Shown here in pieces: positions 10,340-59,774 of a DNA stretch of 64,000 bases; the stretch's first letter is position 1; every line of letters starts with the position of its first letter. Under the pieces are notes generated by a model. It saw only the letters and a program-made list of their open reading frames with translations. It did not search any database and was not told the origin of the DNA. This DNA is from Anaerolineae bacterium (GTDB taxonomy: Bacteria; Chloroflexota; Anaerolineae; JAAYZQ01): contig DAOTXL010000102.1 in NCBI GenBank assembly GCA_034435455.1, positions 15,704-79,703 on the forward strand. The letters are read 5' to 3'. The translations under genes were made by a program, and so were the position numbers.

Positions 10340-10357
10340 TCCTCACTCCTGCCAGAA

Positions 10358-43912: not shown

Positions 43913-43927
43913 AAAAGATCTTCCTGC

Positions 43928-44869: not shown

Positions 44870-44913
44870 CGCCTTCACGGGGTCCCTCAGGGTCAAGCAG
44901 CCTGGACCCTGCT

Positions 44914-45444
44914 TCACCAACTCACCGCCACCATCCTGACCTGCCAGTTTCGGTCCCGGTACTTGACATGTTTGTGCTGTCGCCCATACTCGTACAACTG
45001 CCGCGTCACTTCCACATCCTGCTGGCAATAGTCCAGGATTTCCTGGATGCGGCCCTCTTTGTACCAGCGCACCGCCTGCAGGCCATCGGCTGACTTGCCG
45101 ATGCCCAACGTGGCGCTCGCCAGGTCGCCCAGGCTGACCCGAAAGCCCAACCGCCGGTAGAGGTGCTCCAGCATGTCCACCGTGGGGAGGTGGTCCAACC
45201 GTTCCTCGGTATAGGCGTGCAGCACCTCATAGTCGAAGCGCAGCACGTTAAAGCCCACCACCAGGTCAGCGGCTTTCAGTTCGGCGATCAGGCCGGCGAC
45301 GGTCCCTTCGGTGTAATGGTGGAAGGCCCCGTCGGCGGTGGAATAGGTCACGGCGGCGGCCAGGCCCAGCTTGCGGATGTTGTGCCGCCCTCCCACCTCG
45401 TCGAAGGTATGTTGGGTTTCGACGTCAAAAAAGACCGTGTTCAT
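44914..45444 (-). CDS. DEDD-family 3'-5' exonuclease
   Basis: Exo I FFDVET, Exo II FNVLRFD, Exo III YCQQDVEVTRQLY-type motifs. 176 aa. Confidence 0.65.
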   Translation of the reverse strand: MNTVFFDVETQHTFDEVGGRHNIRKLGLAAAVTYSTADGAFHHYTEGTVAGLIAELKAADLVVGFNVLRFDYEVLHAYTEERLDHLPTVDMLEHLYRRLGFRVSLGDLASATLGIGKSADGLQAVRWYKEGRIQEILDYCQQDVEVTRQLYEYGRQHKHVKYRDRNWQVRMVAVSW

Positions 45445-45493
45445 CCAACAACTCCAATCTATCCCGACAATGTCACATTGGCGGAGCGGATGA

Positions 45494-45559
45494 GGGACTT
45501 CCCCTCTCCCCTACCCCCTGGCCCCCTTCCCCTCTCCGCCGCGGGAGAGGGGAAGGGGG
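45494..45559. repeat. C/T-rich palindromic element (perfect 16-bp stem CCCCCTTCCCCTCTCC-GCCGCG-GGAGAGGGGAAGGGGG) preceded by a related half-repeat
   Basis: Read directly. Lies in the exonuclease/murE intergenic region. Confidence 0.75.
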
Positions 45560-45751
45560 TTGGGGGATGGGGTGAGGTCAAAGCGAACAACATCCAAGAC
45601 AGATCTGTTCCTGGATTGCTTCTCGCAAGCCCGTTCCGGTTGACCTCATCTCCAGACAGTCGGTGCAAAGTTAACATCTACGGTTTCCAGATATGCCTTA
45701 TTTTATCACGAACCGCCCCCCGGCGCAAGCGAGAGTGCACCTCACAAGCTT

Positions 45752-45780
45752 TTGACGGCTGCCCTCCTTTGGGGTATACT
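45752..45780 (+). promoter_or_regulatory. sigma70 promoter (TTGACG-17-TATACT) for murE
   Basis: TTGACG at 45752-45757, 17-nt spacer, TATACT at 45775-45780. GGAGAAGG RBS before ATG 45807. Confidence 0.5.
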
Positions 45781-45806
45781 GTATGCCGGGCAAACAGGAG
45801 AAGGAA

Positions 45807-47333
45807 ATGGCGCTTCCACTGGCCGGTCTGGTTGACGCTCTACCGCGCGCCGACGTTCGCGGCGACACAGACATTACCATCACCGCTCTCACCTCCGACT
45901 CGCGGCAGGTGAAGCCCGGCAGCCTGTTCGTTGCTTATCGCGGCGTGGCGGCGGATGGCCACGATTTTATCCCCCAGGCCGTGGCCAACGGCGCGGTGGC
46001 CCTTGTGGCCGAGAGGGAGGTGCCGGGCCTGGCGGTGCCGCTCGTTGTCGTGCCCAACGGGCGAGAAGCGCTGGCCTATCTGGCCGCGGCGTGGCACGGC
46101 TTCCCGGCGCGCCGGCTGACCGTCATCGGCGTGACCGGCACCGACGGCAAGACGACCACCTGCAACCTGCTGCACAGCATCCTGACCGCTGCCGGCCGCC
46201 GGGCGGGGCTGATCACCACCGTCAATGCCCTCATCGGCGACCGGGCGTTCGACACCGGCCTGCACACCACCACCCCCGACGCTCCCGATGTGCAACGCTA
46301 CCTGGCAGAGATGGTAAAAGCGGGCATGGAACTGGCCGTGGTAGAGGCCACCTCCCACGGCCTGGAGCAGCATCGCGTTGCTGCCTGCGATTTCGATGTG
46401 GCGGTTGTGACCAACGTCACCCACGAGCACCTGGACATCCACGGCAGCCTGGAGGCCTACCGTCAGGCCAAGGCCACCCTCTTTCGCCACCTGATGGCCG
46501 GTTATCGCAAGCCGGGCATCCCCAAGGTGGCGGTTCTCAATGCCGATGACGATTCCTACCGCTATCTGCGCCCGATCCCTGCCGACCGGCATCTGACCTA
46601 CAGCATCGGCGGCAATGCCGATGTGGTGGCGACCGACCTCTGGCGCTCGCCTTCCGGCAGCCGCTTCGTGGTTCGATCACCCGGCGGCGAGATAGAGCTG
46701 CACACGGCGCTGGTGGGGGACTATAACGTATCCAACATCCTGGCCGCCATGACCGCTGCCCTGGCCCTGGGCGTGCCGACGACGGCCATCCGGCAGGGGG
46801 TATGGGCGGTCCAGGGCGTCGTCGGGCGCATGGAACGGGTGGACGAAGGCCAGGACTTTACCGCCATCGTGGACTTTGCCCATACCCCCAACGCCCTGCA
46901 ACGGGCGTTGGAAACGGCCCGCACCCTGACCCAGGGGCGTGTCATCGCCGTATTCGGCTGCGCCGGCGAGCGGGATGTAGCCAAGCGGGCCTGGATGGGC
47001 GGAATCGGTGCCCGGCTGGCCGACGTGACGGTCCTGACCGCCGAGGACCCCCGCCGTGAGTCGCTGGCGGCCATCCTGGACGAGATGGCGCGGGGCGCGG
47101 CGGGGGCCGGTGCCGTCGAGGGGGAATCGTACTTTTGCGTGCCCGACCGGGCCGAGGCGATCCGGTTCGCGGTGGACCTGGCCCGCCCCGGCGACCTGGT
47201 CATCTGTTGCGGCAAGGGGCACGAGCAATCCATGTGCTACGGCACCGTCGAGACGCCCTGGAGCGAGCATCAGGCGCTGCGGGAGGCGTTACGGCGGCGC
47301 ATTGCCAGGACGATGAAGCGGAGTGAACCATGA
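45807..47333 (+). CDS. murE: UDP-N-acetylmuramoyl-L-alanyl-D-glutamate--2,6-diaminopimelate ligase
   Basis: Mur ligase P-loop VIGVTGTDGKTTT. The DNPR-like motif region distinguishes MurE. 509 aa. Confidence 0.85.
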   Translation: MALPLAGLVDALPRADVRGDTDITITALTSDSRQVKPGSLFVAYRGVAADGHDFIPQAVANGAVALVAEREVPGLAVPLVVVPNGREALAYLAAAWHGFPARRLTVIGVTGTDGKTTTCNLLHSILTAAGRRAGLITTVNALIGDRAFDTGLHTTTPDAPDVQRYLAEMVKAGMELAVVEATSHGLEQHRVAACDFDVAVVTNVTHEHLDIHGSLEAYRQAKATLFRHLMAGYRKPGIPKVAVLNADDDSYRYLRPIPADRHLTYSIGGNADVVATDLWRSPSGSRFVVRSPGGEIELHTALVGDYNVSNILAAMTAALALGVPTTAIRQGVWAVQGVVGRMERVDEGQDFTAIVDFAHTPNALQRALETARTLTQGRVIAVFGCAGERDVAKRAWMGGIGARLADVTVLTAEDPRRESLAAILDEMARGAAGAGAVEGESYFCVPDRAEAIRFAVDLARPGDLVICCGKGHEQSMCYGTVETPWSEHQALREALRRRIARTMKRSEP

Positions 47334-48880
47334 ACCTGTTGTCTGTCTTGTTGGCCCTGTCGCCGGTCCTGATCATCCTGCTCCTGTTGACCCTGCGCCG
47401 CACGGCTGCCGACACGGCAGGCGTCATCGGCTGGGTTGCTGCCGTGCTCGTGGCCTGGCTCTACTTCAAGACGCCACCGGGTGTCATCCTGTCGGCCAGC
47501 CTGGCCGGGGTGGTGGCCTCGCTGCCCATCGCCCTGGTGGTGGCAACCTCGATCTTGCAGGTCACGATCCTGATCGAGACGGGGGCCATCGCCCGCATCG
47601 TGGCCCTCGTCAAGAGCGTGGCCGTGGGCGATCAGGGGGTACAGATCATGCTCCTCAACGTTGGCTGCGGGACGCTGCTGACGGCATTGGGCGCGGTGCC
47701 GGTCTCGATCCTGCCGCCGATCCTGATCGCCCTGGGCTATACCCCCTTTGCGGCCATCGCCCTGCCGGCCATCGGCTACGATGCCCTGTGCACCTACGCC
47801 CTGCTGGGTATCCCGGTGGTTGTCTTTGCCGGCTTTGTCAACCTGCCGGTGGGGGAGGCGGGGGAATATTTTGCCCGGTTCATGCCGGTCATCAGTTCGG
47901 GCATCGCCCTGGGGATGCTGTGGTTGGTGGGGCGAGGGGCCATGCTGCGCCGGGGGTTCCTGCCCGCCCTCCTCGCCGGGCTGACGGCCGGGCTGGTGTG
48001 CATCGGCATGACCGCCGCCAACCTGGTCACCCTCACCGGCATCGCCGCAGGGCTGGCCGTCATCGCCGTGATGCTGGTCTACCTCAGGCTCCGGGGCAGG
48101 CCGTTGCGGGACTGCACGGTCTTGAGCCAGGCCGACCGGGCTGCCGAGCGCCAGCTGCCGCTGTGGGCAGCCCTCTCGCCCTGGATCCTGCTGACCCTCT
48201 GTGCCCTGCTGGTCAACGCCCCCTTTTCCCCCTTTTTCGACCTGACCTTCCGGCGATGGGCCATGCCGGTCGAGATCATCCCCGGCGCCCCGGAAAAGGT
48301 GCGCCCCCTGTGGCAGGCCTATTTCTGGATCCTGGTCAGCACGTTGCTAACCCTGCCCCTGCTCAGGCCGACGCGGGCCCAGATCGTCACCGCATGGCGC
48401 AAGTGGCTGAAGCGAGCGCCGCGGCCGGTGCTGGCCGCTGCCGTCTTTTTCGCCATCGCCTATGTCCTCAACCATTCGGGCAAGGGAGCCGACTGGCGCC
48501 TGGCCGACCCCTCGCGCAACATGATCTATGTGCTGGCCACAGCCGCCGCGGCGACCTTGGGCAAACTCTATCCCTTCGTCGCCCCCTTCCTGGGGCTGTT
48601 GGGCGGCTTTATCAGCGGCTCCGAGACCTCGTCTATCGCCATGTTGACCGCCCTGCACCGCCAGACGGCGGAGCAGATCGGCGCGGACGGGTTGCTCATC
48701 GCTGCTGCCAGCGGCATCGGCGGCGGACTGGCCAGCGTCATCTCGCCGGCCAAGCTGCAAAACGCCTCGGCGGCCATTGACCGCATCGGCGAGGAGGCCC
48801 AGGTTCTGCCCAAGACCTTCGTCATCGCCCTGATCATCACCGCGGTGGGCGCAGGGATGGCGCTGCTGTGGGCTTTTTGA
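47330..48880 (+). CDS. LctP-family (L-lactate/glycolate) permease-like transporter
   Basis: 516 aa with about 12-14 TM segments and a Gly/Ala-rich LctP-like central block. ATGA overlap with murE. Family call from overall resemblance only. Confidence 0.5.
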   Translation: MNLLSVLLALSPVLIILLLLTLRRTAADTAGVIGWVAAVLVAWLYFKTPPGVILSASLAGVVASLPIALVVATSILQVTILIETGAIARIVALVKSVAVGDQGVQIMLLNVGCGTLLTALGAVPVSILPPILIALGYTPFAAIALPAIGYDALCTYALLGIPVVVFAGFVNLPVGEAGEYFARFMPVISSGIALGMLWLVGRGAMLRRGFLPALLAGLTAGLVCIGMTAANLVTLTGIAAGLAVIAVMLVYLRLRGRPLRDCTVLSQADRAAERQLPLWAALSPWILLTLCALLVNAPFSPFFDLTFRRWAMPVEIIPGAPEKVRPLWQAYFWILVSTLLTLPLLRPTRAQIVTAWRKWLKRAPRPVLAAAVFFAIAYVLNHSGKGADWRLADPSRNMIYVLATAAAATLGKLYPFVAPFLGLLGGFISGSETSSIAMLTALHRQTAEQIGADGLLIAAASGIGGGLASVISPAKLQNASAAIDRIGEEAQVLPKTFVIALIITAVGAGMALLWAF

Positions 48881-48887
48881 CCGAACC

Positions 48888-49103
48888 GTGAACGAGACCG
48901 GGGAGAGGATCATGGTCCAAGTCATCTATCGCGACAAGACCTGGGAGGTCAGGCCGGGCAGCACCGTGCGCCACCTCATCGAGAAGGTTGGGCTGAATCC
49001 CGAATCGGTCCTGGCGGTGCGCAACGGTGTGTTGATCAACGAGGCAACCCTGACCGAAGAGGGGGACGTCATCAAACTGGTAGCGGTCGTGTCCGGGGGA
49101 TGA
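48888..49103 (+). CDS. ttuB: ThiS/MoaD-type ubiquitin-like sulfur-carrier protein (TtuB-like), C-terminal Gly-Gly
   Basis: 71 aa, ends ...VVSGG. Beta-grasp-sized. Sits 8 nt after the permease gene. Confidence 0.65.
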   Translation: MNETGERIMVQVIYRDKTWEVRPGSTVRHLIEKVGLNPESVLAVRNGVLINEATLTEEGDVIKLVAVVSGG

Positions 49104-49165
49104 GGGCTGCACGACAGGCCCCCCCATCCATCCGCTGCAAAGCAGATCAACGAGAGGAGGAATCT

Positions 49166-49573
49166 ATGACCATAGAATGGAACGATGAATTGCGGCTGGG
49201 GGTCCCTGAAATGGACGACCAGCACCAAAAACTGATCGCCCTCCTGAACCAGTTTTACGCCGCAGTAGAACGGGGAGAGCGCGAAGAGGGGATCATGGCC
49301 CTCCTGGAAGGAGTGGACCGTTACACCGTTTACCACTTTTCCGCCGAGGAGCAGTTTATGGAGCAGATCGGCTATCCCGACCTGGAGCCCCACCGGAAAA
49401 TCCACCTCGCCTTCCGACAGGAGTATCTGGCCACGGTGGAGCGGCACAAAGGGGGAGACCGGAAGGCGATCCGGGATCTGGTTGCTTCTCTCCTCTCCTG
49501 GCTGTACACCCACATCAACAAGACAGACCGACGGTATGCAACCTTTTTTCAGAAGCAGGCCGGGGGAGGTTGA
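49166..49573 (+). CDS. hemerythrin-like (bacteriohemerythrin) protein
   Basis: HxxxE and HxxxxD/H iron-ligand spacing (DDQHQKL, HFSAEEQFM, HRKIHLAFRQEY, HINKTD). Start at ATG 49166 (MTIEWND). Confidence 0.7.
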   Translation: MTIEWNDELRLGVPEMDDQHQKLIALLNQFYAAVERGEREEGIMALLEGVDRYTVYHFSAEEQFMEQIGYPDLEPHRKIHLAFRQEYLATVERHKGGDRKAIRDLVASLLSWLYTHINKTDRRYATFFQKQAGGG

Positions 49574-49667
49574 TCCCTGGTAGCAGGAGCCGAACTGTCC
49601 CCCCCGGTCCCTTCCTCACTCCGGCGCGGCGCGGGGGCAACGGAACAGGGGTCCAAGGCAAGGTGAC

Positions 49668-50585
49668 ATGAAGTGTAGCAAATGCGGTGGCCTGGCCGTC
49701 ATCAACCTGCGCCAACACCGGCTGCGGCTGTGCTCCGACCATTTTGTCGAATGGTCCATCGCTATGGTCCAACGCACCATCGAAACCTACCGTATGTTCA
49801 CCCCGGCCGAGCGGGTGCTTGTCGCCGTCTCCGGTGGGAAGGATAGCCTGACCTTGTGGGATATCCTGTTGCGGCTGGGCTACCAGGCGGAGGGGTTGTA
49901 CATCGGCCTGGGGATTGACGAGGGGATCGGGTACTCGGCCCGATCGCTGGAGATGTGCCGCAAATTTGTCGCCGACCACCACCCGGCAGCCCTGCTCCAC
50001 GTGGTGGAGATGGAGGGCGAGTACGGGCGGGCCCTCCCCGACCTGGCCCGCCACACACAGCGTGGCCGGGGCAAACCATGCGCCGTGTGCGGCCTGGTCA
50101 AACGCCATGTGATGAACCGTGTCGCCCGCGACGGCCACTTTGCCGCCATCGCCACCGGCCACAACCTGGATGACGAGGCTGCCGTGCTGATGCAAAACAC
50201 CCTGCATTGGCAGGCCGGCTACCTGGCCCGCCAGGCGCCGGTGTTGGTCGAGCGGGAGGGCCTGGCGCGCAAGGTCAAGCCGCTGTGCCGCCTCTATGAG
50301 CGGGAGGCAGCCGCCTATGCCCTGGTGCAGGGCATTGACTATATCTACGACGAGTGTCCCTTTGCCAGGGGCTCGACCACCAACTTTTACAAGGAACTGC
50401 TCAACCAACTGGAGCTCAAATCGCCAGGGGCCAAGCAGCAGTTCTACCTGCAATTCCTGCGGGCGCGCGACGCCGGTCAGGTGACCTTTAGCGAGGCCGC
50501 CGGGGAGGAGCTGCACCCCTGCGCCCGTTGTGGCCAGCCGACTACGGCCGGCGACCTGTGCGCCTTCTGCCGGTTGTGGGAGTAG
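49668..50585 (+). CDS. ttuA: TtuA-type tRNA 2-thiolation PP-loop ATPase with N- and C-terminal zinc ribbons
   Basis: PP-loop VAVSGGKDS, ATGHNLDDEA, N-terminal CxxC..C..H and C-terminal CARCG..CAFCRLWE, matching the TtuA architecture. Confidence 0.8.
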   Translation: MKCSKCGGLAVINLRQHRLRLCSDHFVEWSIAMVQRTIETYRMFTPAERVLVAVSGGKDSLTLWDILLRLGYQAEGLYIGLGIDEGIGYSARSLEMCRKFVADHHPAALLHVVEMEGEYGRALPDLARHTQRGRGKPCAVCGLVKRHVMNRVARDGHFAAIATGHNLDDEAAVLMQNTLHWQAGYLARQAPVLVEREGLARKVKPLCRLYEREAAAYALVQGIDYIYDECPFARGSTTNFYKELLNQLELKSPGAKQQFYLQFLRARDAGQVTFSEAAGEELHPCARCGQPTTAGDLCAFCRLWE

Positions 50586-50659
50586 GCCCCTCCCCCTCCC
50601 TCCGCCCCCCCCCTGAACGGTTCAGGTGCCAGGCACTTTTTTGATCGTCGAAACCAAGC

Positions 50660-53542
50660 CTAGAGGGCCGAGGCTTCCGGAGTCTGGTTTTGTAGCGCCA
50701 GCCAGCGCCTGGCCACCTCCGGCAGCCTGGCCAGCGGGGCGCGCACCGTGGTACACTCCGGCAGGGAGTTGAGGAACATCGGCCCGTACGATTTGGTCAA
50801 GACGCGCCTGTCCAGGACGACGACCACCCCCCGGTCGGTCTTGGCGCGGATCAGCCGGCCAAAGCCCTGGCGGAAGCGCAAGATCGCCTCTGGGATGGCA
50901 TACCGGGCAAAGGGGTTGTCATAGGTCTCGGAGCGGGCGGCAAAGATCGGGTCGTCGGGCACGGAGAAGGGCAGGCGGACCAGCACCAGCACGCTCAGCG
51001 CCGGCCCGACCACGTCTACCCCCTCCCAAAAGCTGCGCGTGCCCAGCAGCACCGCCCGGGGGGTGGTGCGGAAATTTTCCAGCAGTTGCACCCGCGAGGT
51101 GCCTGCCCCCTGCTCGTAGAGCACGATCCCGGCCTCGGCCAGGGGGCGGGCAATGGCCTGCGAGGTGGCCCGCAGTTGGGAATAGGAGGTGAACAGCACC
51201 AGCGCCCGGCCTTCGGTGGCGCGGCACAGGGCCAACAGCACCTCCTCCACCGTCTTCTGATAGTAGGGCTGGTTGGGCTCCGGGATGTCGGTGGGCAGGT
51301 AGAGGAGGGTCGAGTTCTTGTAGTCGAACGGGGAACCGACTGCCAGTTCGTCCGCTTCCCAGGCGTTCAGCCGCTCGCGGAGAAAGTCGAAGCGGTTGTC
51401 GGTGGTCAGCGTGGCCGAGGTGAGGATGACCGACTCTTTGGCATGGAACAGGTGCCGTTCCACCAGTTTGCCCACGTGCAGCGGCGCAGCGTGGAGGGTC
51501 ACCCGCCCGTCCTGGGCCGAAATGCTGGCCCAATAGATAGCCTCGTGGGACGGTTCGGCGATGCAGGCATTGATCTGTGCCCGTAGCTCGCCCAGGCGGG
51601 CGAGATACCCGCCACAATCCTGGATCAACCCCTCCAGGTCCGGGATGTCGTAGCGGTCCAGTTCCCCCAGGCCGCCGATCAACTGCTCCAGGTCGCCGAG
51701 GATCCGGTAGAGCTGGGCCGCCAGATTATCCCAGCTCATCTCCACCCGGCTCCAGGCCGGCTGGACCCGCTGGCCGCTGGTCAGGCGAACCCGCCGGTCG
51801 TACTCACCCTGCCCGGGGCTGTGTTCCTGCAAAAAGTCGCCCAGGATGTTGAAAAAACTGTAGGCGTTGGTCAATGCCGCTTCCACCTGGCGCTGCAGCT
51901 CGCGGACGTGGCTCTCCAGCACAGCCCACTCTTCGGCGGGGACCCTGCCCCGGCAGTGGGAGAGGAGATCGCTCAGGAAACCGCCGTAGCGGCGGGCCCC
52001 CATCGGCCGGACCAGCTCGTTGAGCACCCGTTCCACGGCGGCCTGGTCGGCCTCGAAGCTCAATTGGCGGGTGACGCTGTCCTCCAGGTGGTGGGCCTCG
52101 TCTACGATAAGGTAGCGGTAATCGGGCAGGACCCGGTTCTCGGTGGCCACGTCCGAAAGGAGCAGGGCATGGTTGACGATGACCAGGTGCGCCCGTTCGG
52201 CGGCACGCCGGGCACGGTAAAAGAAGCAGCGGCCCCGCTCCCGGAAGCGGCAGCGTTCCAGGGTACAGGTATCGCTCTCGGCCGAGATCTTGTTCCACAG
52301 CACCTGCTCGACCGGATCGGGCATGAACAGCTCATCCCGCTCGCCGGTTTGGGTGCTGGGCAACCAGACCAGTACCTTGGCCAACATGCGCATCTCCTCC
52401 ACCGAGCTGACGCCCGCCTGGCGCAGGCCGGCCAGCCGCCGCTGGCAGAGATAGTTGTTCCGCCCTTTGAGCACCGCCACCCGAAACTCGAAGGGCAGGA
52501 GCTTTTGCAGGTCGGGGGTGTCTTTGCGAAAGAGCTGGTCCTGCAGGTTGATGGTATTGGTCGAAACGACGACCCGCTCGCCGTTGAGGTGGGCAAAGGT
52601 GACGGCAGGCAACAGGTAGGCCAGGCTCTTGCCGGTACCGGTACCGGCCTCGACCAGCAGGTGTTGTTGTTTGTTGAAAGCGTTGGCCACAGCCCGGAGC
52701 ATCTCCACCTGCTGGGGACGATGCTCAAAGCCGGGAAAGTGGCGGGCAAAGGGGCCGCCTTCCTCCAGCATGGCGGCCAGTTCGTCCACGTTCAGGGCCC
52801 TGGGCCGGGCGGCGCGGACCAGTTCCTCCTCTTCCGAGTCTGTGGCAAAGAGCGGCCCCAACGCCTCCTCCCTCGAATCGAACCGGGCGGCCAGTTGCTG
52901 GCCGATGGCCCCCCGGAAGGCGGTCCGCGTCTGTTCCCGCTCCAGGTCACGGAACACCTCCCGCAGCGGCCAGTCCACCGTCCTGGCCAGGCGGTTGATC
53001 TCCTGGAGGATGGCCGGCGGCAGGTGGGAGGCCTGTTCCAGCAGCGCCACAAACAGGTCCTTGGCGGCCAGCGCATCCTCCAGGGCGCGATGGGTGCTGA
53101 GGGTGGGCAACTCGAACTCCTGGCACAGCCTGGACAGGCTATAACGGGCGGCGTGGGGCGCCAGGATGCTGGCCAGCTCGAAGGTGTCCACCACCGGGTT
53201 GTCCAAGGACAGGTCATGGCTCCGCAGGAAATCCAGGTCAAAGTGCACGCTATGGCCCACCAGCGGGTGGCTGCCCACGAAGCGGCGCAGTTCGTGGGCC
53301 ACCTGCCTGAAGCGGGGAGCGCGGTTCACCTCGTCGTGGCCGATGCCGGTCAACTGCTGGATGGGAAAGGGGATGGGCCGGCCGGGGTTGACCACGGTGG
53401 ACCAGGTGTCGAGCACCTGGGCCTGGAGAGAGCCCTCGTCGGTAGAGAGGCGAAAGCGGACGGCGCCAACTTCCAGGATGGCATCGCGCCGGGGGTCAAG
53501 GCCCGTGGTCTCGATGTCCAGGGCCACGCAGGTTCGATTCAT
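50660..53542 (-). CDS. dinG: DinG-family ATP-dependent helicase with N-terminal DnaQ-like 3'-5' exonuclease domain
   Basis: Exo motif VALDIETTGLD at the N-terminus. Helicase motif I GTGKS and DEAH box LIVDEAHHLED. 960 aa. Confidence 0.8.
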   Translation of the reverse strand: MNRTCVALDIETTGLDPRRDAILEVGAVRFRLSTDEGSLQAQVLDTWSTVVNPGRPIPFPIQQLTGIGHDEVNRAPRFRQVAHELRRFVGSHPLVGHSVHFDLDFLRSHDLSLDNPVVDTFELASILAPHAARYSLSRLCQEFELPTLSTHRALEDALAAKDLFVALLEQASHLPPAILQEINRLARTVDWPLREVFRDLEREQTRTAFRGAIGQQLAARFDSREEALGPLFATDSEEEELVRAARPRALNVDELAAMLEEGGPFARHFPGFEHRPQQVEMLRAVANAFNKQQHLLVEAGTGTGKSLAYLLPAVTFAHLNGERVVVSTNTINLQDQLFRKDTPDLQKLLPFEFRVAVLKGRNNYLCQRRLAGLRQAGVSSVEEMRMLAKVLVWLPSTQTGERDELFMPDPVEQVLWNKISAESDTCTLERCRFRERGRCFFYRARRAAERAHLVIVNHALLLSDVATENRVLPDYRYLIVDEAHHLEDSVTRQLSFEADQAAVERVLNELVRPMGARRYGGFLSDLLSHCRGRVPAEEWAVLESHVRELQRQVEAALTNAYSFFNILGDFLQEHSPGQGEYDRRVRLTSGQRVQPAWSRVEMSWDNLAAQLYRILGDLEQLIGGLGELDRYDIPDLEGLIQDCGGYLARLGELRAQINACIAEPSHEAIYWASISAQDGRVTLHAAPLHVGKLVERHLFHAKESVILTSATLTTDNRFDFLRERLNAWEADELAVGSPFDYKNSTLLYLPTDIPEPNQPYYQKTVEEVLLALCRATEGRALVLFTSYSQLRATSQAIARPLAEAGIVLYEQGAGTSRVQLLENFRTTPRAVLLGTRSFWEGVDVVGPALSVLVLVRLPFSVPDDPIFAARSETYDNPFARYAIPEAILRFRQGFGRLIRAKTDRGVVVVLDRRVLTKSYGPMFLNSLPECTTVRAPLARLPEVARRWLALQNQTPEASAL

Positions 53543-53637
53543 GGGGAATCCCTTCTAGGGGAGATGCAGAGGCGCAGCACGCTGTCCTCTCCTCCCGGTG
53601 GGGTGATTATACCCCAGGTCTGGACAGGAGGCAAATG

Positions 53638-54489
53638 TCAACCGGGTGCCAGCCACCGATCCAGCAGCAGTTCCTGTTTCTTGCACTCGATCTTTTCTGA
53701 ACTCTGCTCATTGCCCAGGATGGCGCCGGCCAGTACCGGCAGATACCGGCCGAGGAGCCGGAAAGGTCGGAGCAGGTAGCAGGCATGCAGGCTGAGGTGG
53801 ATCAGCAGGTCTTCTGGGGCCAGGAACTTGACCGGTCGCCCGGCCACCTGCCCGGCTGTTGCCCGCTGCCACAGGGCTTCCACCGGGATGGGAAAGCCGT
53901 CGTTGGGCGGCATCAGGTCCCAGTGCACCTCCACCTGGACCCTGCGCCCCGGCAGGTGATAGGGGACCAGGTGGTGGATCCGCTCCGGCCGATACCAATC
54001 GCGGGGGGCATAGCCCTCGTCGGGCCGGTAGCCCAGATGCAGCAGGATCTCCTCGGCCTGCTCCACGTCCGCCGGCCGGACCAGGAAGTCCAGATCGCCG
54101 CACAACCGCAAGGCCGGATCGGGAAAGATGCTCTCCCGCAGGGCCAGCCCTTTGAGCGGCATCGCCTCGATGCCGGCAGCGCGCCACGCATCCAGCAAGC
54201 GGCCCCCTTCGATCTGTTGCAGGGTGGTCAGCAAGATGCCCAGCCGATTGGCCTCCTCCAGCATCCGCCAGGCCCCGGCCGGCACCTTCACCCCCAGGTC
54301 AGGCTTTTGCAGATGGTGGTAGACCAGGGTGGGGAGGCCATGCCGGATGGCGCGGGTCACCACCCTGTCCCAGTCCAGGTCCCGGCCGGCCAGATGGTGG
54401 ATGGTCTGCTCCTGGGCCGGTTCCAGGGCGACCCGGGCGCACAGCAATAACAGCCGGTCTTCGGCGGAAACGGAGATCAGGGGGTTCAT
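53638..54489 (-). CDS. 'uncharacterised nucleotidyltransferase' family protein (PqqD-associated type)
   Basis: About 280 aa with a GDLDFLV nucleotidyltransferase-like Gx(D)xD core. The fold class regularly accompanies PqqD-like proteins, recalled from memory rather than searched. Start chosen at ATG 54489 (MNPLISV); the alternative upstream start is 54627. Confidence 0.5.
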   Translation of the reverse strand: MNPLISVSAEDRLLLLCARVALEPAQEQTIHHLAGRDLDWDRVVTRAIRHGLPTLVYHHLQKPDLGVKVPAGAWRMLEEANRLGILLTTLQQIEGGRLLDAWRAAGIEAMPLKGLALRESIFPDPALRLCGDLDFLVRPADVEQAEEILLHLGYRPDEGYAPRDWYRPERIHHLVPYHLPGRRVQVEVHWDLMPPNDGFPIPVEALWQRATAGQVAGRPVKFLAPEDLLIHLSLHACYLLRPFRLLGRYLPVLAGAILGNEQSSEKIECKKQELLLDRWLAPG

Positions 54490-54825
54490 CGGCGCAAGAC
54501 CCAGGCTGCCAGTGCAGGGAGCCAGGCCACGGCCCGGCGCAGCAGGCGACGGCGGCGCAGGGGGAAACAGAGGGCCAGGGCCCAGCCGAAGGCCCGGGCA
54601 ACCGGGGATTGCAGGTCGAAATGGCAACCAGGGCCATCCACGGCCACCACCCGGCCGATCACAGCACCGACCGGGAACGGCGGGTCGGCCTCGAGGCGGT
54701 TGTCGCCACCCAGCGGGGGGCAGTGGGGCGCAGCAACAGGGTGAGGTCGCCGCGTTGCTCCACCCACACGCCGACCGGCAGCCGTGGCCGATGGTCCAGA
54801 GTGTCCATAGCCAGGGCGGCCCGGA

Positions 54826-54990
54826 CTAGCACAAAACGACCGAGTGGTTAAAGGAGCAAGCCTGGGCCGGGCCCAGTTCCTCCAGGATCTGGTCGCCGCG
54901 ATAGGTGATGACCCGGGGTGGCTCGTACGGGGGCAGGGCTTCCTCGCTTTTCCGGACCGCCGTCGGTTCCTGCTTTTCGATCTGGTTCAC
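54826..54990 (-). CDS. candidate small ORF (54 aa) between the PqqD-like and nucleotidyltransferase genes: possible precursor peptide
   Basis: GTG start 7 nt after GGAGGAGGG. Translation VNQIEKQEPTAVRKSEEALPPYEPPRVITYRGDQILEELGPAQACSFNHSVVLC. High GC3. Starts 45 nt after the PqqD stop. Not in the supplied ORF track, which has a 60-aa cutoff. A plus-strand shadow ORF occupies the same DNA. Confidence 0.3.
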   Translation of the reverse strand: MNQIEKQEPTAVRKSEEALPPYEPPRVITYRGDQILEELGPAQACSFNHSVVLC

Positions 54991-55035
54991 CGCACCCTCC
55001 TCCTGTCAATCCACGCGGCCATGGTTGCAGGATAA

Positions 55036-55314
55036 CTATGGCCTTGTTATCAAACCTTCTGCTTCAAAAAGCTCCAGGACGGCCTGGATGTCACCGGCAA
55101 CATCCTGTTCCGGTGCTGGGGCAAAGCGGGCACAGAGCACAGCTTCGATCTCGGTCGGGGTATGCTGCCCATCACCCAGCTCCCACACCAGCCGGGCGGT
55201 GGGGTTCAGGATGTGGATCGAGTCCCGGACGGGGTCATAGAGGAGTGTCTCGCGCCCTGCAGATTTACACACGATATCGGGTCGTTGACGCAATGTTCCC
55301 CGACTCTGGTCCAT
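55036..55314 (-). CDS. PqqD-family protein (RiPP recognition element-like peptide chaperone)
   Basis: About 93 aa with LYDPVRDSIHILNPTARLVWEL..TPTEIEAVL..AGDIQAVLELFEAEGLI, the PqqD/RRE winged-helix pattern. Start at ATG 55314. Confidence 0.65.
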   Translation of the reverse strand: MDQSRGTLRQRPDIVCKSAGRETLLYDPVRDSIHILNPTARLVWELGDGQHTPTEIEAVLCARFAPAPEQDVAGDIQAVLELFEAEGLITRP

Positions 55315-55474
55315 TGGCAGAGACCCACGCCCCGGCCCTGGCATCCGCCAGCCCTGGGCCCCTTTCCCTTCAGGATGCTTCCATTATATCAGAACCCGGT
55401 GCGGAAGTCAAGGGGCAAGAAGGTCTGATTTGGGTGGGTAACAAACCTGCCCTGCCTGCCGCCGGGCCTTGCCC

Positions 55475-55547: not shown

Positions 55548-56639
55548 GTGACGGAACAGACAAATCCGACAGGCAGGAACCCCGACGCAGAGCCGGTGTG
55601 GACCTACCGGGGCTATCGTCTGCGGCCCAGCGAGTTCACCACCGCCATGGTCCACTTTTTCCGGGCGGAGGTGCAACGGGCCAACGTCTGGCGGCAGCGG
55701 CTGGATACCACCACCAACTGGGCGGTGCTGACCACCGGCGCGGCAATCTCTTTTGCCTTCAGCCGGGCTATCGCCGAGGACCACCGGGTGATCATCCTGA
55801 ACGTCCTGTTGGTGACGCTCTTTTTGTATATCGAGGCCCGCCGCGACCGCTATTACGAGCTGTGGAGCTACCGCGTGCGGCTGATGGAGACCGATTTCTT
55901 TGCCACCATGCTGGTGCCGCCCTTCCATCCGGCGGCCGATTGGGCCGAAAGCCTGGCCGAGAACCTGCTCCACCCCCAGTTTCCGATCTCGTTGTGGGAG
56001 GCGTTGGGCCGGCGGTATCGGCGAAATTATCTGTGGATCTATGCCGTGCTGGGGCTGGCCTGGCTGTCCAAGATATGGTTGCACCCTATCCAGGCATCCT
56101 CCTGGTCCCAGTTCATCTCCAGAGCAGCCATCGGCCCCATCCCGGGCGGAGCAGTGCTGGCGGCTGGCCTCCTGTTCAACGGCCTGCTGCTGCTCGTCGG
56201 GCTGCTGACGGTGGGGCTGCAACAGGCCACCGGCGAGGTGCTGCCCCGCTACGGCGCCTTCCAACTGCCCGCCCTGGCAGAGCGCGCACCGGCCCCCGGC
56301 CCTCGCCTGGCCTCCTGGCGAGCCTGGTTCCGCCCCAGCCGACAGCGGCAACGGCTGCTGGCCTTCATCATCACCGACCGGGCCCAGGCCGTGGCCGACC
56401 GCATCCTGCGCGACATGAGCCGGGGGGTGACCGCCCTGTCGGCCGTCGGCATGTACACCCGGCAGCCGCGCACCATGCTGATGTGTGCCCTGACCGTGAC
56501 CGAGGTGGCACAGCTCAAGGCCGTGGTTAGCGCCGAGGACCCCCAGGCGTTCGTCACCCTGTCGCCGGCCCAGGAGGTGTTGGGCAAGGGCTTTGCGCCG
56601 TTGCGCGAGGAGGCCGAACCATCGTCGGAAACGGAGTAA
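55548..56639 (+). CDS. membrane protein (DUF2270-like) fused to a small C-terminal DUF2179-like domain
   Basis: Hydrophobic core about 200 aa, then a soluble C-terminal about 80 aa (LMCALTVTEVAQLKAVVSAEDPQAFVTLSPAQEVLG). Family names from memory. Confidence 0.45.
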   Translation: MTEQTNPTGRNPDAEPVWTYRGYRLRPSEFTTAMVHFFRAEVQRANVWRQRLDTTTNWAVLTTGAAISFAFSRAIAEDHRVIILNVLLVTLFLYIEARRDRYYELWSYRVRLMETDFFATMLVPPFHPAADWAESLAENLLHPQFPISLWEALGRRYRRNYLWIYAVLGLAWLSKIWLHPIQASSWSQFISRAAIGPIPGGAVLAAGLLFNGLLLLVGLLTVGLQQATGEVLPRYGAFQLPALAERAPAPGPRLASWRAWFRPSRQRQRLLAFIITDRAQAVADRILRDMSRGVTALSAVGMYTRQPRTMLMCALTVTEVAQLKAVVSAEDPQAFVTLSPAQEVLGKGFAPLREEAEPSSETE

Positions 56640-56649
56640 AAGCCCCCTG

Positions 56650-57684
56650 TCAGCCCCACACCCCGGGGATGGCGCGGCCGCAGTCGGGGCAGCGGCCCTG
56701 TCCCAGCCGCCAGCGGGTCACCTGCAGCCCCCACCGCCCGATGAGCAGCGTCCCACAGTCGGGACAGGCTGTGTTCTCCAGAGGGTGGCCCGGCACGTTG
56801 CCCAGATACACGAACTCCAGGCCGGCCTCCTGTCCAATCTGCCAGGCCCGTTCCAGGGTGCGCAGCGGTGTCGGCGGGGCAGTGAAGCGATAGGCCGGGT
56901 AATAGCCGCTGAGGTGCCAGGGCACCTCTCTCCCCAGTTCGGCGGCGATGCGGCCGGCGATGGAGCGCAGAACCTGGTCCGCATCGTTCACGCCCGGAAT
57001 GACCAGGGTGGTGATCTCCAGCCAGACCCCTGCCTGCCGCGCCAGGTAGCAGTTACGCCACACTTTTTCCACGTCCACCCCGCAATATCGCCGCACGGCC
57101 TGGGCATCGCCTTTTATGTCCACATTCATGGCATCCAACCCGGCTTCGACCAGCAGGGCCAGCGCCTGGGGAGTCATGTAGCCGTTCGTCACATAGGTGT
57201 TGTACAGGCCCTGCCGGCGGGCCAGGCGGAACACCTCCAGTGACCATTCCAGGGAGAGGGTGGGTTCGTTGAAGCTGATGGAGGTCCCCCGGCAGTCCCG
57301 CTCCACGGCTTCTTGCACAAACTCTTCAGGCGCGAAAAAGCGGGTCGGGCGGGGTCGGGCCTTGGAGATCTCCCAGTTTTGGCACCAGGGGCAGGCCAGG
57401 TTGCACGACCAGGCCCCGCCGGTCAGGGCCACCGAACCGGGATAAAAGTGGTAGAGCGGCTTTTTTTCGATCGGGTTGACCGAGAGGGACGAGACCGCGC
57501 CGTAGAGGAGGGTCACCAGTTCGCCATTCCGGTGGCCTCGGGTCCGACACCAGCCCAGCCCGCCAGGGGCGATCTCGCAGCGGCGCTCGCAGGTCAGGCA
57601 GCGGAGCCGCTCCCCGGCCGGCTCCACCAGCAACGCGGGCCGGGTGAACCGCTGCAGGGAGGTCGGCCAGTGCCCCTCCTCCAT
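56650..57684 (-). CDS. radical SAM enzyme, AmmeMemoRadiSam-system/PFL-activase-like type
   Basis: N-terminal CLTCERRCEIAPGGLGWC and radical SAM CNLACPWCQN. C-terminal CPDCG..CPDCG zinc ribbon. Start uncertain (57684 or 57747). Confidence 0.6.
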   Translation of the reverse strand: MEEGHWPTSLQRFTRPALLVEPAGERLRCLTCERRCEIAPGGLGWCRTRGHRNGELVTLLYGAVSSLSVNPIEKKPLYHFYPGSVALTGGAWSCNLACPWCQNWEISKARPRPTRFFAPEEFVQEAVERDCRGTSISFNEPTLSLEWSLEVFRLARRQGLYNTYVTNGYMTPQALALLVEAGLDAMNVDIKGDAQAVRRYCGVDVEKVWRNCYLARQAGVWLEITTLVIPGVNDADQVLRSIAGRIAAELGREVPWHLSGYYPAYRFTAPPTPLRTLERAWQIGQEAGLEFVYLGNVPGHPLENTACPDCGTLLIGRWGLQVTRWRLGQGRCPDCGRAIPGVWG

Positions 57685-57695
57685 CGCTCCCGCCC

Positions 57696-59774
57696 CTACC
57701 CCCCGGCCGTGGCCTGCCAGGCCGAGAGCAGTTCGGCCACGCTCCACGCCTGAGCGACGCAGCCATGCGGGGTAAAAGGCGGATCGCCGTCGAAAATCTC
57801 GCTGATGCTACCCACGCCATGGCTGACCACCTGGCGCAACAGCGGTTCCAGATAGGAGCGCGCCTGGGCCGGGTTGCGATAGACGCGCAGGTGCGCCCGG
57901 ACAAAGGGGCCGATGAGCCAGCCCCAGACTGTGCCCTGGTGATAAGCGGCATCGCGCTGCCGGCGGTCGCCGCCATAGTGGCCGATGTAGGCCGGATGGT
58001 CGGGGGCCAGGCTGCGCAGGCCGTGCGAAGTGAGCAGATGTCGGGCGCAGAGGTCCACCACCGCCCGCTGCTGATCGGCGGTCAACGGGCTGTGGGGCAG
58101 CGATACGGCTAACAACTGGTTGGGGCGCAGCGCCGGATCGTTGCCCTCCGGTCCGTCGAGGAGGTCGTAGCAACAGCCCTTTGCCGGGTTCCAGAAACGG
58201 GCGAACCCGGCAGCGACCCGGTCGGCCAGGGCATCGTACCGTTCGGCCGGCTCGCCCAGGATGCGGGCGAAATCGGCCAGGATGCGCAACGCATTGTACC
58301 ACAGGGCATTGATCTCCACCGGCTTGCCGATGCGCGGCGTAACCACCCAATCGTCCACCCTGGCATCCATCCAGGTGAGTTGCAGGCCCGGCTCGCCGGC
58401 ATAGAGCAGGCCGTCGGCGGGGTCGGCATGGATCTGGTAGCGGGTGCCGCGCAGGTGCCAGGCAACGATCTCCTCCAGGGTGGGGAACAGGCGGCGCAAC
58501 AGAGCCTCGTCGCCCGTGGCCGCGTAGCAGGCGCGGATGGCTTCCAGATACCACAGGGTGGCATCGGCCGTGTTGTATTCGGGCGCTTCGCCCCCATCGG
58601 GGAAGCGGTTGGGCAGCAGGCCCTGATGAACGTGGTGGGCAAAGGTGTCGAGGATGCGCCAGGCAATCTGGTAGCGGCCGGTAACCAAGGTCAGGCCGGG
58701 CAGGCTGATCATCGTGTCGCGGCCCCAGTCGGCAAACCAGGGGTAGCCGGCGATGACCGAGTAGCCCTGTTGTCCGTCGGGCAGTGGGCGGCGGACGATG
58801 AACTGATCGGCAGCCAGCACCAGGTGTTCGATGGCCCGGGGAGCAGCCCGCAGGACAGGCATACGGCCGGCCTCCGCCAGTACCTGCTCTTCGTAGGCCT
58901 GCCGCCCGGCATAGGCGGCCACGCCGTCCAGGTTCGGCGAGGGGTCAACGCTGGCCACCAGGCAGAGCGACTCGCCGGGTTGCAGGGTCCGCTGCAAGGT
59001 AGCGCCGCATAAGAGGTCCTCCGTGGCGATCTGCCCCCGGCGTGCCTCGGCGCTCAGGTAGAGCCCCTCGCACCACTCGTAGGCGGGGATCATCCCGGCA
59101 TCGCGGCTCAGCAGGTAAAACGGCACCGCCCCTGCCGACGCGGTCAGGCGCAGGCCGTGGGCCACCGGCTCGATCTGGAGGGTCCAGTCGCCGGCCCGGG
59201 TGCTGCCGTGATGGTCCCGGTAGTTGACCAGCGCCCGGATGTCCAGGCGCAGTGGGCCACCGGCCCGACGCAGGTCATAGCGAATGTAGGTGGTGTTGGC
59301 CCCTGGCTGCATCCAGATGCGCTTTTCCAGCAAGGCATCGGCGCAGGCAAAGGTCCATACCGGCGTGGTGCCCTCCAGGCGAAAGCGTTCCAGATAGCGG
59401 AAGCCGGTCGGCTCCACCCCGCCTCCGCGCCAGCGGTTGGCAAACAGAGGATAGCTATGGCCGTCGCAGGTAGCCGTCTCGTCCAGTTTGGCCAGCAGGA
59501 GGGTGCGTCCCACCGGCGGTCGGAGGGCAGCGATCAGCAGGCCGTGGTAGCGGCGCGTCAACAACCCGGCGACCGTGCCTGAGGCATAGCCCCCCAGGCC
59601 GTTTGTCACCAGCCATTCGCGCCGTTCGGCGATGGAGAGGTCGCCACACACCTCACGTCCAAAATCGAGGAACTCCCCTCCGCCCTTGCGCTCCATAGCC
59701 AAGCCCCCCGACACCCCGTCGTGGGGAAAAGCCTGCCCGAAAAATCGGTAGGACAGGCTCTGAGAGCATAACAC
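57696..59774 (-). CDS. amylo-alpha-1,6-glucosidase (glycogen debranching enzyme-type) family protein
   Basis: 692 aa. GDE N-terminal beta-sandwich and C-terminal (alpha/alpha)6 region (AGYPWFADWGRDTMISLPGL). Confidence 0.7.
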   Translation of the reverse strand: MLCSQSLSYRFFGQAFPHDGVSGGLAMERKGGGEFLDFGREVCGDLSIAERREWLVTNGLGGYASGTVAGLLTRRYHGLLIAALRPPVGRTLLLAKLDETATCDGHSYPLFANRWRGGGVEPTGFRYLERFRLEGTTPVWTFACADALLEKRIWMQPGANTTYIRYDLRRAGGPLRLDIRALVNYRDHHGSTRAGDWTLQIEPVAHGLRLTASAGAVPFYLLSRDAGMIPAYEWCEGLYLSAEARRGQIATEDLLCGATLQRTLQPGESLCLVASVDPSPNLDGVAAYAGRQAYEEQVLAEAGRMPVLRAAPRAIEHLVLAADQFIVRRPLPDGQQGYSVIAGYPWFADWGRDTMISLPGLTLVTGRYQIAWRILDTFAHHVHQGLLPNRFPDGGEAPEYNTADATLWYLEAIRACYAATGDEALLRRLFPTLEEIVAWHLRGTRYQIHADPADGLLYAGEPGLQLTWMDARVDDWVVTPRIGKPVEINALWYNALRILADFARILGEPAERYDALADRVAAGFARFWNPAKGCCYDLLDGPEGNDPALRPNQLLAVSLPHSPLTADQQRAVVDLCARHLLTSHGLRSLAPDHPAYIGHYGGDRRQRDAAYHQGTVWGWLIGPFVRAHLRVYRNPAQARSYLEPLLRQVVSHGVGSISEIFDGDPPFTPHGCVAQAWSVAELLSAWQATAGG

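Follow-up and report, generated by a model that had tools for sequence, protein, structure and literature searches.

The window, that is, the whole 64-kb stretch of DNA analysed here, carries on its minus strand a gene for a PqqD-family protein, a 54-codon open reading frame and a gene for a nucleotidyltransferase. All three lie where the original prediction had placed them, when they were read as a possible minimal peptide-modification module. The features of the locus, including several that lie between or within these genes, are collected in Table 1.

Table 1. Features of the locus, listed in the direction of transcription
Feature	Position	Strand	Evidence
Promoter-like site, TTGACT-17 nt-TATAAT with extended TG	55383-55411	minus	Consensus scan, 11/12 matches, pattern only
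PqqD-family RRE gene (discrete, appears intact)	55036-55314	minus	Pfam PqqD profile match
Precursor-peptide gene, 54 aa	54826-54990	minus	93 homologous small proteins and alignments
5' remnant (34 codons) of RRE-radical SAM/SPASM maturase gene	54707-54808	minus	N-terminal alignment to relatives
Junction of ~7.4-kb deletion, 7-nt microhomology GCTGGGT	54708-54714	minus	Alignments to L034 and L088
3' remnant (75 codons and stop) of S24/signal-peptidase-I-like leader peptidase gene	54486-54713	minus	Homology to L005/L034/L088
NTP_transf_5 nucleotidyltransferase gene, internally deleted	53638-54489	minus	Pfam NTP_transf_5 (PF14907)
Junction of 429-nt deletion within nucleotidyltransferase gene	53782-53792	minus	Double alignment to L088

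The PqqD open reading frame in full spans 55036 to 55344, with an internal ATG at 55314 and an alternative ATG at 55344, and the promoter-like site lies upstream of it. Its product matched the Pfam PqqD profile (PF05402) over model positions 1 to 67 of 67 (E = 5.6e-11; 43 bits, cutoff 23.4) and retains every residue that is invariant or nearly so among 21 members of the family. An exact-sequence look-up found neither the 92-aa protein nor the 102-aa form on record. A PDB search with the single sequence gave a best E value of 0.96; the lasso RRE matches came from a profile of the protein and its relatives, which detected the lasso B1 RREs TfuB1 (1.1e-6) and TbiB1 (1.3e-6) as well as PDB entry 9x8z, named "PqqD family protein." These profile matches place the protein among the discrete RREs of the lasso/LPP type (LPP, linear polyphosphorylated peptide).

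The 54-aa open reading frame starts 45 nt past the PqqD stop at a GTG codon, 4 nt after AGGAGGAGGG. Searched exhaustively with phmmer, 1.84 billion representatives yielded 93 small-protein relatives at E ≤ 1e-3, 10 of them at E ≤ 1e-10. In relatives the peptide gene is syntenic with PqqD: it often follows PqqD directly, with an RRE-radical SAM/SPASM gene as its next neighbour downstream, and in many loci it adjoins one or both of these genes. The leader PxYEPPxVxTYxGxxILEELGPAQAC(S/T) is common to the family; the tail behind it varies and usually includes Cys. Within the leader, Y22-x-x-P25-x-V27 is nearly invariant in an alignment of 51 sequences and is predicted to be a motif of the RRE-binding type ([Y/W]xxPx[L/V/I]); LGPAQAC is also conserved. 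The putative core is C45-SFNHSVVLC54, with the leader/core boundary placed where we infer it to be. The dN/dS of the gene relative to its L034 orthologue was 0.13. On this conservation the reading frame is a genuine conserved RiPP-precursor-like peptide, far beyond chance expectation, and it defines a widespread precursor family for which searches of Pfam and NCBIfam found no matching model.

The 336 nt that separate the peptide and nucleotidyltransferase genes hold what the original prediction missed. This spacer is not empty and contains the N terminus of a radical SAM protein and the C terminus of an S24 peptidase in different reading frames. The radical SAM remnant, MDTLDHRPRLPVGVWVEQRGDLTLLLRPTAPRWV, aligns with the radical SAM N termini of four relatives (L010, L034, L018, and L022) and continues out of frame until a stop at 54659. 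The S24 remnant has 81% amino acid identity to residues 88 to 162 of the 162-aa S24 protein of L005/L034 and 97.6% DNA identity to L088, and it has no in-frame native start. The full S24 protein of L088 and L034 has the motifs GSSMGP (Ser), IHRL (His), and GGDN, of which the window retains only GGDN onward; with the catalytic Ser and His deleted, the remnant is by all appearances a catalytically dead fragment. When the sequences on either side were compared, GCTGGGT proved common to the radical SAM side and the S24 side: the homology to L034 radical SAM DNA ends at 54708, the L088 S24 alignment begins at 54714, and L034 DNA aligns with the window on both flanks of a 7,404-bp gap. Across the junction, codon 34 of the radical SAM gene is joined to codon 88 of the S24 gene in a different frame.

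The nucleotidyltransferase gene has also lost sequence. Its product scored well above threshold against Pfam NTP_transf_5 (8.1e-45, 153.8 bits), so that profile searches confirmed the predicted homology of this protein as well as that of PqqD, but the match covers model positions 3 to 191 of 249 only and leaves positions 192 to 249 unmatched, compared with positions 2 to 248 in L034. The protein is 283 aa long versus 426 to 435 aa in the aligned relatives L005, L034, and L088 (homologues range from 371 to 489 aa), with 143 codons absent in frame and the DLD metal-binding motif retained. The 429-nt deletion is flanked by the 10-nt imperfect direct repeats CCTGCATGCC and CCTGTATGCC, and window positions 53792 to 53782 align to both 8229 to 8239 and 8658 to 8668 of L088. 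A PDB search with the full protein gave nothing useful. We also considered dN/dS relative to L034 as a decay test and set it aside as not decisive: the values of 0.33 for the S24 remnant and 0.24 for the nucleotidyltransferase are still below 1, as expected for a recent deletion, and are not proof of decay.

Two relatives retain what the window has lost. In L034 the gene order is complete (PqqD, peptide, radical SAM/SPASM, LTD, HprK, C25, S24, NTP_transf_5, and DinG), with Pfam support for each gene. L088 (GCA_037439345.1), a conspecific strain with 97% DNA identity to window positions 43915 to 54714, encodes the radical SAM protein (cut by the contig end), the LTD protein, the HprK-like kinase, C25, S24 (161 aa), the nucleotidyltransferase (426 aa), and DinG, and the genes downstream of DinG are those of the window. 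In both, the radical SAM/SPASM, LTD, HprK-like kinase, C25, and full S24 genes occupy precisely the interval between the peptide and nucleotidyltransferase genes. The radical SAM genes of relatives are full, with PqqD, Radical_SAM, and SPASM domains, and sit beside the Cys-containing precursor. The HprK-like kinase was found in L034, L088, L010, and L006, and the parent clusters occur in MAGs of Chloroflexota, Aminicenantes, and Thermodesulfobacteriota. Their large secreted proteins have in common an unannotated C-terminal domain of ~110 aa, for which a Pfam search found nothing. A tblastn search of the whole window found no homologues of the radical SAM/SPASM, HprK-like, C25, or C-terminal-domain proteins elsewhere in its 64 kb, and the original prediction was correct that no cyclase, protease, kinase, or radical SAM/SPASM gene is contiguous with the locus. 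The radical SAM gene at 56650 to 57747, considered as a partner, belongs to the AmmeMemoRadiSam family (TIGR04337, 279 bits, cutoff 220) and is unrelated to the locus. In the literature covered, no description of the parent cluster type was found.

These observations indicate that the locus is very probably what recent deletions have left of a multi-enzyme RiPP-type gene cluster of ~10 kb, a natural knock-out and not a self-sufficient module. The ancestral order, which L088 and L034 still show, was PqqD RRE, precursor, RRE-radical SAM/SPASM, secreted LTD protein, HprK-like kinase, C25 (PorU-like), S24, and NTP_transf_5, followed by a housekeeping DinG-like helicase. Illegitimate recombination at the 7-nt microhomology then removed ~7.4 kb, from radical SAM codon 34 to S24 codon 87, and a second slip, between the 10-nt direct repeats, removed the 143 nucleotidyltransferase codons, so that in the window strain only the RRE and precursor genes and the promoter-like site are still intact. 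The apparent minimal RiPP module would thereby have an ordinary explanation, recent cluster decay by two microhomology-mediated deletions.

It seems very improbable that the three remaining genes suffice by themselves, with the RRE delivering the 54-aa peptide to a nucleotidyltransferase that nucleotidylates it. The genes are co-directional and close together, and the N-terminal catalytic half of the enzyme, DLD motif included, is still there, but the codons that the enzyme has lost are present in all full-length homologues and include Pfam positions 192 to 249, and its start overlaps the stop of the now untranslatable S24 remnant, so that translational coupling has probably been lost. Characterised enzymes of this class modify a phosphate that an HprK-like kinase has put in place (PMC6993621), and here the kinase has been deleted. 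An architecture of PqqD, peptide, and nucleotidyltransferase only was present in no relative examined, except the same deletion strain, and the intact conspecific allele already largely refutes the idea: the partners of the proposed minimal module were deleted here and are still present in L088 and L034. A crippled but active nucleotidyltransferase is conceivable because the deletion is in frame and the DLD motif is kept. The proposed "chaperoned and nucleotidylated peptide" system is not supported; a "cryptic or partial RiPP-like system" was the correct half of that interpretation.

A role in trans is unlikely, though less readily dismissed. Under this explanation the orphan RRE and precursor are functional, and their radical SAM/SPASM enzyme, kinase, peptidases, and nucleotidyltransferase come from another, complete cluster at a different place in the genome. 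Both open reading frames and the promoter-like site are intact, and the peptide family commonly has additional copies scattered at a distance from enzyme genes: a genome scan for peptide copies, using a 12-sequence alignment as the query, found copies on four contigs of one Chloroflexia MAG (L015, L016, L017, and L024) with a radical SAM gene at only one locus, and 19 of the 61 copies with enough downstream sequence had no adjacent radical SAM gene. However, no second cluster lies within the 64-kb window, in the conspecific strain the enzymes are encoded at this same locus, which implies that the peptide copy here belonged to the cluster as its precursor, and a deletion as recent as the 97% strain identity indicates is sufficient alone to explain the intact reading frames. 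The sequence evidently comes from a metagenome-assembled genome, and the deletions could in principle be mis-joins in the assembly or a binning artefact. This is hardly credible, since identical scars are present in five assemblies from different pipelines and archives (Logan SRR10095342 and SRR10095340, NCBI GCA_964559445.1, ENA ERZ27296001, and JGI Ga0209018) that differ by 0 to 2 SNPs over up to 14.8 kb.

The working of the intact system can be proposed by analogy, chiefly with the LPP system. The RRE would bind the YxxPxV motif of the leader, the radical SAM/SPASM enzyme would cross-link the Cys-containing core, and the HprK-like kinase would phosphorylate the conserved Ser/Thr beside C45. 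The nucleotidyltransferase would decorate this phosphate, much as PsmN, with its catalytic DxD, adds a hexose to phospho-Ser (PMC6993621), and the S24 peptidase would cut off the leader with the help of the RRE, possibly after AQA. These are probably the roles of the enzymes in the intact system. In the window strain the local genes would be unable to perform any of these steps, and we infer that at most unmodified peptide and RRE are made. Some residual function of the locus is conceivable because neither the PqqD gene nor the peptide gene is damaged: both keep all of their conserved residues, and a near-consensus promoter-like site precedes them.

More speculatively, and with a small chance of being right as a whole, the parent clusters may constitute an undescribed RiPP class defined by a discrete RRE, a YxxPxV-leader peptide, an RRE-radical SAM/SPASM enzyme, an HprK-like kinase, a PorU-like C25 peptidase, a signal-peptidase-I-like peptidase, and sometimes NTP_transf_5, whose product would be a radical-SAM-cross-linked, phospho-decorated peptide acting with large secreted proteins. 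If so, the peptide might even be joined to those proteins by the C25 "sortase-like" peptidase, and the window strain would be a natural knock-out, retaining only RRE and precursor, comparable to its 97%-identical intact sister strain. The two strains form a natural isogenic-like pair for probing the function of the product.

Several known systems have features in common with the parent cluster. The best NCBIfam match of the window PqqD was ScmD, of the SynChlorMet cassette (Haft), the best match of the relatives' kinase was HprK_rel_A, of the HPr-rel-A system, and ScmE and ScmF were among the top radical SAM matches (NCBIfam TIGR04248-04251 and TIGR04352-04353). Membership in either system was rejected, as the scores of the window PqqD and of the relatives' radical SAM and kinase proteins are far below the curated cutoffs (bits/cutoff: ScmD, 28.8/100; ScmF, 122/400; HprK_rel_A, 53 to 56/200; for comparison, StsB, 127/625, and PapB, 85/340). 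The relatives' RRE-fused radical SAM/SPASM gene directly downstream of a Cys-containing precursor resembles the arrangement of the radical SAM/SPASM thioether RiPPs (sactipeptides and ranthipeptides). With the lasso peptides paeninodin and pseudomycoidin the cluster has in common tailoring by an HprK-like kinase and a PsmN-type nucleotidyltransferase and a discrete PqqD-like B1 RRE that recognises a [Y/W]xxP leader motif (PMC8498205, PMC6993621). It is not a lasso peptide cluster, because the gene calls and Pfam hits for the window and for the intact relatives (L034, L088, L006, and L010) included neither a macrolactam synthetase (C) nor a B2 transglutaminase-like cysteine protease.

Of the known systems, the LPP clusters of Bacillota (Popov et al. 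2026, Nat Commun; PMC13381572) come closest to the parent cluster. In the LPP toolkit an RRE (LppB) is accompanied by a signal-peptidase-I-like leader peptidase (LppS), which depends on LppB, by an HprK-like kinase (LppK), which phosphorylates Ser3 in the core, and by an NTP transferase (PMC13381572). The RRE profile matches both 9x8z and the lasso B1 proteins, the best NCBIfam match of the relatives' S24 protein is archaeal signal peptidase I, and a Ser/His/Asp leader peptidase of this kind is present in the intact relatives, although not in the window, from the whole of which the HprK-like kinase gene is likewise absent. As the original prediction held, the nucleotidyltransferase class recurs in HprK/lasso-type loci (PMC13381572, PMC6993621); the window copy, short of 143 codons, may be of the LppN/PsmN type, these two being placed in PF14907 by their published description as an "uncharacterised NTP transferase." The precursors have only YxxPxV[ILV] in common, followed by TYxGxxILEELGPAQAC here and by LxHQxIxFETxxS in the LPP consensus YxxPxVLxHQxIxFETxxS, in which [Y/W]xxPx[L/V/I] is the RRE-binding leader motif (PMC13381572). 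No MsbA-like exporter was seen in the parent cluster, which adds an RRE-fused radical SAM/SPASM enzyme, a C25 peptidase, and a large secreted protein. LPPs have been described as restricted to Bacillota (PMC13381572), whereas the hosts of the parent cluster lie outside that phylum; the intact relatives join the LPP toolkit with radical SAM/SPASM and C25 enzymes in Chloroflexota, Aminicenantes, and Thermodesulfobacteriota, beyond its stated range.

The locus, made up of genes for a PqqD-type RRE protein, a 54-aa peptide and an NTP_transf_5 nucleotidyltransferase, is a recent deletion remnant of a RiPP-type cluster and effectively a natural knock-out. The three elements are present on the minus strand within 53638-55344, as in the original prediction, and the GTG start of the peptide ORF, the AGGAGGAGGG upstream of it and the 45-nt gap to PqqD are as claimed there. 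Profile searches matched the two larger proteins to the proposed families, the nucleotidyltransferase only in part (see table). The radical SAM gene 56650-57747 was rejected as a partner of the locus, as it encodes an AmmeMemoRadiSam enzyme. Nearby, 55548-56639 encodes a divergently transcribed membrane protein in which DUF2270 is fused to a C-terminal DUF2179 domain. Genes at 48888-50585 and 50660-53542 encode a sulfur carrier resembling ThiS, a hemerythrin and a TtuA-like ATP-pyrophosphatase, possibly a tRNA thiolation set, and beside them a DinG-type helicase of 960 aa whose N terminus carries an RNase_T exonuclease domain.

Features of the window locus and of the intact cluster in the relative L034 (FWPU01002179.1), with the DNA alignments between them
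Sequence	Feature	Position	Strand	Details
Window	Promoter-like site TTGACT-17-TATAAT	55411-55383		Upstream of PqqD; near-consensus, 11/12 matches
Window	PqqD ORF	55036-55344, internal ATG 55314	minus	Pfam PqqD, whole model, 5.6e-11, 43 bits vs 23.4-bit cutoff
Window	54-aa ORF	54826-54990	minus	GTG start 4 nt past AGGAGGAGGG; 45 nt past PqqD stop
Window	rSAM/SPASM 5' fragment	from ATG 54808	minus	34 codons (MDTLDHRPRLPVGVWVEQRGDLTLLLRPTAPRWV); aligns to RRE part of L010, L034, L018 and L022 proteins
Window	S24 3' fragment	54713 to stop 54486	minus	75 codons, frame other than that of rSAM fragment; 81% identity to residues 88-162 of the 162-aa S24 peptidase of L005/L034
Window	Nucleotidyltransferase, 283 aa	53638-54489	minus	NTP_transf_5, 8.1e-45, only model positions 3-191/249
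Window	AmmeMemoRadiSam radical SAM gene	56650-57747		TIGR04337, 279 bits vs 220-bit cutoff
L034	PqqD	9279-9575		
L034	Peptide	9630-9797		
L034	RRE-rSAM	9803-11203		
L034	S24	17058-17546		
L034	NTP_transf_5, 435 aa			Pfam positions 2-248/249
L034	DNA alignment	9329-9915		Window 55282-54708
L034	DNA alignment	17320-18252		Window 54712-53786
L034	DNA alignment	18689-18826		Window 53778-53641
L034	DNA alignment	18983-19794		Window 53576-52765

The 54-aa ORF is genuine and conserved. Phmmer, run exhaustively against 1.84 billion representative proteins, returned 93 small homologs of 40-80 aa at E<=1e-3, of which 10 reached E<=1e-10, and no model in Pfam or NCBIfam covers the peptide. The alignment consists of a hydrophilic, variable N terminus, a strongly conserved block, PxYEPPxVxTYxGxxILEELGPAQAC(S/T), and a tail of variable sequence, in most cases with a second Cys (e.g. 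SFNHSVVLC, SPDPCPYP and SPFSGSVVAC). This layout, with a predicted conserved leader and variable core, is that of a RiPP precursor. The spacing of Y22-x-x-P25-x-V27 matches [Y/W]xxPx[L/V/I], the motif recognized by discrete lasso and LPP (linear polyphosphorylated peptide) RREs (PMC13381572). At the locus L029 (1054-1197; also L030-L032), a 47-aa ORF directly 3' of a 59-aa precursor is a truncated second leader copy (…WEPRRVVTYRGAEILEALGQD*), a degenerate tandem precursor with W for Y in its YxxP motif.

Scans of genome and metagenome collections placed 73 copies of the peptide gene at 68 loci, hosted by Chloroflexota, Aminicenantes and Thermodesulfobacteriota MAGs and found in many metagenomes. 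The loci were annotated by tblastn with reference proteins, which detects distant members poorly, so that the figures that follow are minima. Of the 65 copies with enough upstream flank, at least 16 have PqqD no more than 300 nt upstream, and of the 61 with enough downstream flank, at least 19 have a radical SAM/SPASM gene fused to an RRE no more than 500 nt downstream; another 19 copies are followed instead by a large secreted protein of a group that shares a C-terminal domain. The recurrent full order is PqqD, peptide, RRE-rSAM/SPASM, large FG-GAP/G8/LTD protein, HprK-like kinase and C25 peptidase, extended in some loci by an S24 peptidase and NTP_transf_5. Many satellite copies without an rSAM gene (L016 4465-12689, L017, L024, L027 935-3446, L038, L050 and L068) adjoin large secreted FG-GAP, G8 or LTD proteins sharing a conserved C-terminal domain of ~110 aa, which has no Pfam match. 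The C25 peptidase of the core clusters is PorU-like (NF033707, 5.6e-71, below cutoff), and there are hints of a sorting or attachment link between the peptide, this peptidase and the large C-terminal-domain proteins.

The 336-nt "spacer" between the peptide and nucleotidyltransferase genes contains two gene fragments. One, MDTLDHRPRLPVGVWVEQRGDLTLLLRPTAPRWV, corresponds to the N-terminal part of the rSAM/SPASM proteins of relatives. The other derives from an S24 peptidase whose full form carries GSSMGP, IHRL and GGDN motifs and has archaeal signal peptidase I as its best NCBIfam match; the Ser and His are gone because only the GGDN part remains. In L034, the full order is PqqD, peptide, RRE-rSAM, LTD, HprK-like kinase, C25, S24, NTP_transf_5 and DinG, and 7,404 bp of this sequence have no counterpart in the window. 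A sister strain contig, L088 (GCA_037439345.1), was found via a 426-aa protein that clusters at 90% with the window's nucleotidyltransferase. It has 97% DNA identity to window 43915-54714 and encodes rSAM (incomplete at the contig end), LTD, HprK-like kinase, C25, S24 (161 aa), nucleotidyltransferase (426 aa) and DinG, followed, as in the window, by TtuA, hemerythrin, ThiS, lactate permease and Mur ligase genes. Between its LTD and kinase genes, a 49-aa ORF was called (2932-3081) that matches no family and does not resemble the precursor. The first junction is a 7-nt microhomology, GCTGGGT (54714-54708), common to the rSAM (...CCCCGCTGGGTT...) and S24 (...TTGCTGGGTGGCGAC...) sequences. The second, between CCTGCATGCC and CCTGTATGCC inside the nucleotidyltransferase gene, is an in-frame loss of 429 nt, or 143 codons.

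An assembly artifact can for practical purposes be ruled out, because five assemblies from four archives share the deleted structure with 0-2 SNPs. The original prediction had suggested that the three genes might be a minimal peptide-modification module, with nucleotidylation of the peptide as one option; its observations stand and its interpretation is partly supported, but a minimal nucleotidylation module is very improbable, as the nucleotidyltransferase is truncated, the kinase is missing and this architecture occurs in none of the relatives examined except the deletion strain itself. It is somewhat less unlikely, though still doubtful, that the peptide is an orphan precursor served in trans by enzymes encoded elsewhere in the genome. 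Dispersed copies are common in the peptide family; however, the conspecific strain identifies the window copy as the precursor belonging to the cluster itself, and the deletion happened recently. Measured against L034, dN/dS (peptide, 0.13; PqqD, 0.23; nucleotidyltransferase, 0.24; S24 remnant, 0.33; DinG, 0.16) does not separate these models from a deletion remnant, since the divergence mostly arose before the deletion. That divergence is uneven: the PqqD-peptide segment (54826-55314) has a dS of 1.1-1.6 and 69% DNA identity to L034, whereas the S24-nucleotidyltransferase-DinG segment (including 53638-54713) is far less diverged (dS, 0.37-0.9; 80-85% identity), suggesting that the cluster has a mosaic history or has recombined internally. 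In several lineages it seems unstable, with IS transposases flanking or interrupting relatives' copies. In the relative L005, an IS element breaks the C25 gene, so decay of the cluster is not confined to one lineage; this DDE_Tnp_1 element (265-1081) cuts the gene off. A DDE_5 element (7915-9285) lies just upstream of PqqD in L034.

By analogy with LPPs (PMC13381572) and pseudomycoidin (PMC6993621), the RRE of the intact system would bind the YxxPxV leader and the rSAM/SPASM enzyme would cross-link the Cys-containing core. The HprK-like kinase would phosphorylate the conserved Ser/Thr46 beside the cleavage region, much as the LPP kinase LppK targets Ser3 of its core (PMC13381572). The phosphate could be decorated by NTP_transf_5; PsmN adds a hexose through a DxD motif (PMC6993621), and the window nucleotidyltransferase retains DLD. 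The signal-peptidase-I-like peptidase, helped by the RRE, would remove the leader, at a guess after A42-Q43-A44 (an AxA-type site), leaving CSFNHSVVLC. The window keeps an apparently intact RRE and precursor, but nowhere along it is there a gene for the maturase, the kinase or the C25 peptidase. The leader peptidase that remains is predicted to be catalytically dead and is out of frame, and the nucleotidyltransferase is truncated; translational coupling of the latter is probably lost, since its ATG overlaps the TGA that ends the S24 frame, which can no longer be read. We infer that maturation from local genes is impossible in this strain.

A lasso cluster was rejected, the C and B2 genes being absent from the window and the intact relatives, as was membership in SynChlorMet or HPr-rel-A, for which all curated scores were far below cutoff. 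The closest known system to the parent cluster is the LPP family, described in 2026 for Bacillota, with an RRE, a signal-peptidase-I-like leader peptidase, an HprK-like kinase, an NTP transferase and a precursor with a YxxPxV leader (PMC13381572). The parent cluster adds an rSAM/SPASM maturase, a C25 peptidase and a large secreted protein, and differs in its distal leader motif and in its host phyla; no MsbA-like exporter was seen with it. No description of the combined architecture was found in the literature searched, an absence that does not prove novelty. The parent cluster is a distinct variant within the LPP/rSAM-RiPP kind, and this family, together with the pair of deletion and intact strains, deserves more attention than the window locus itself.
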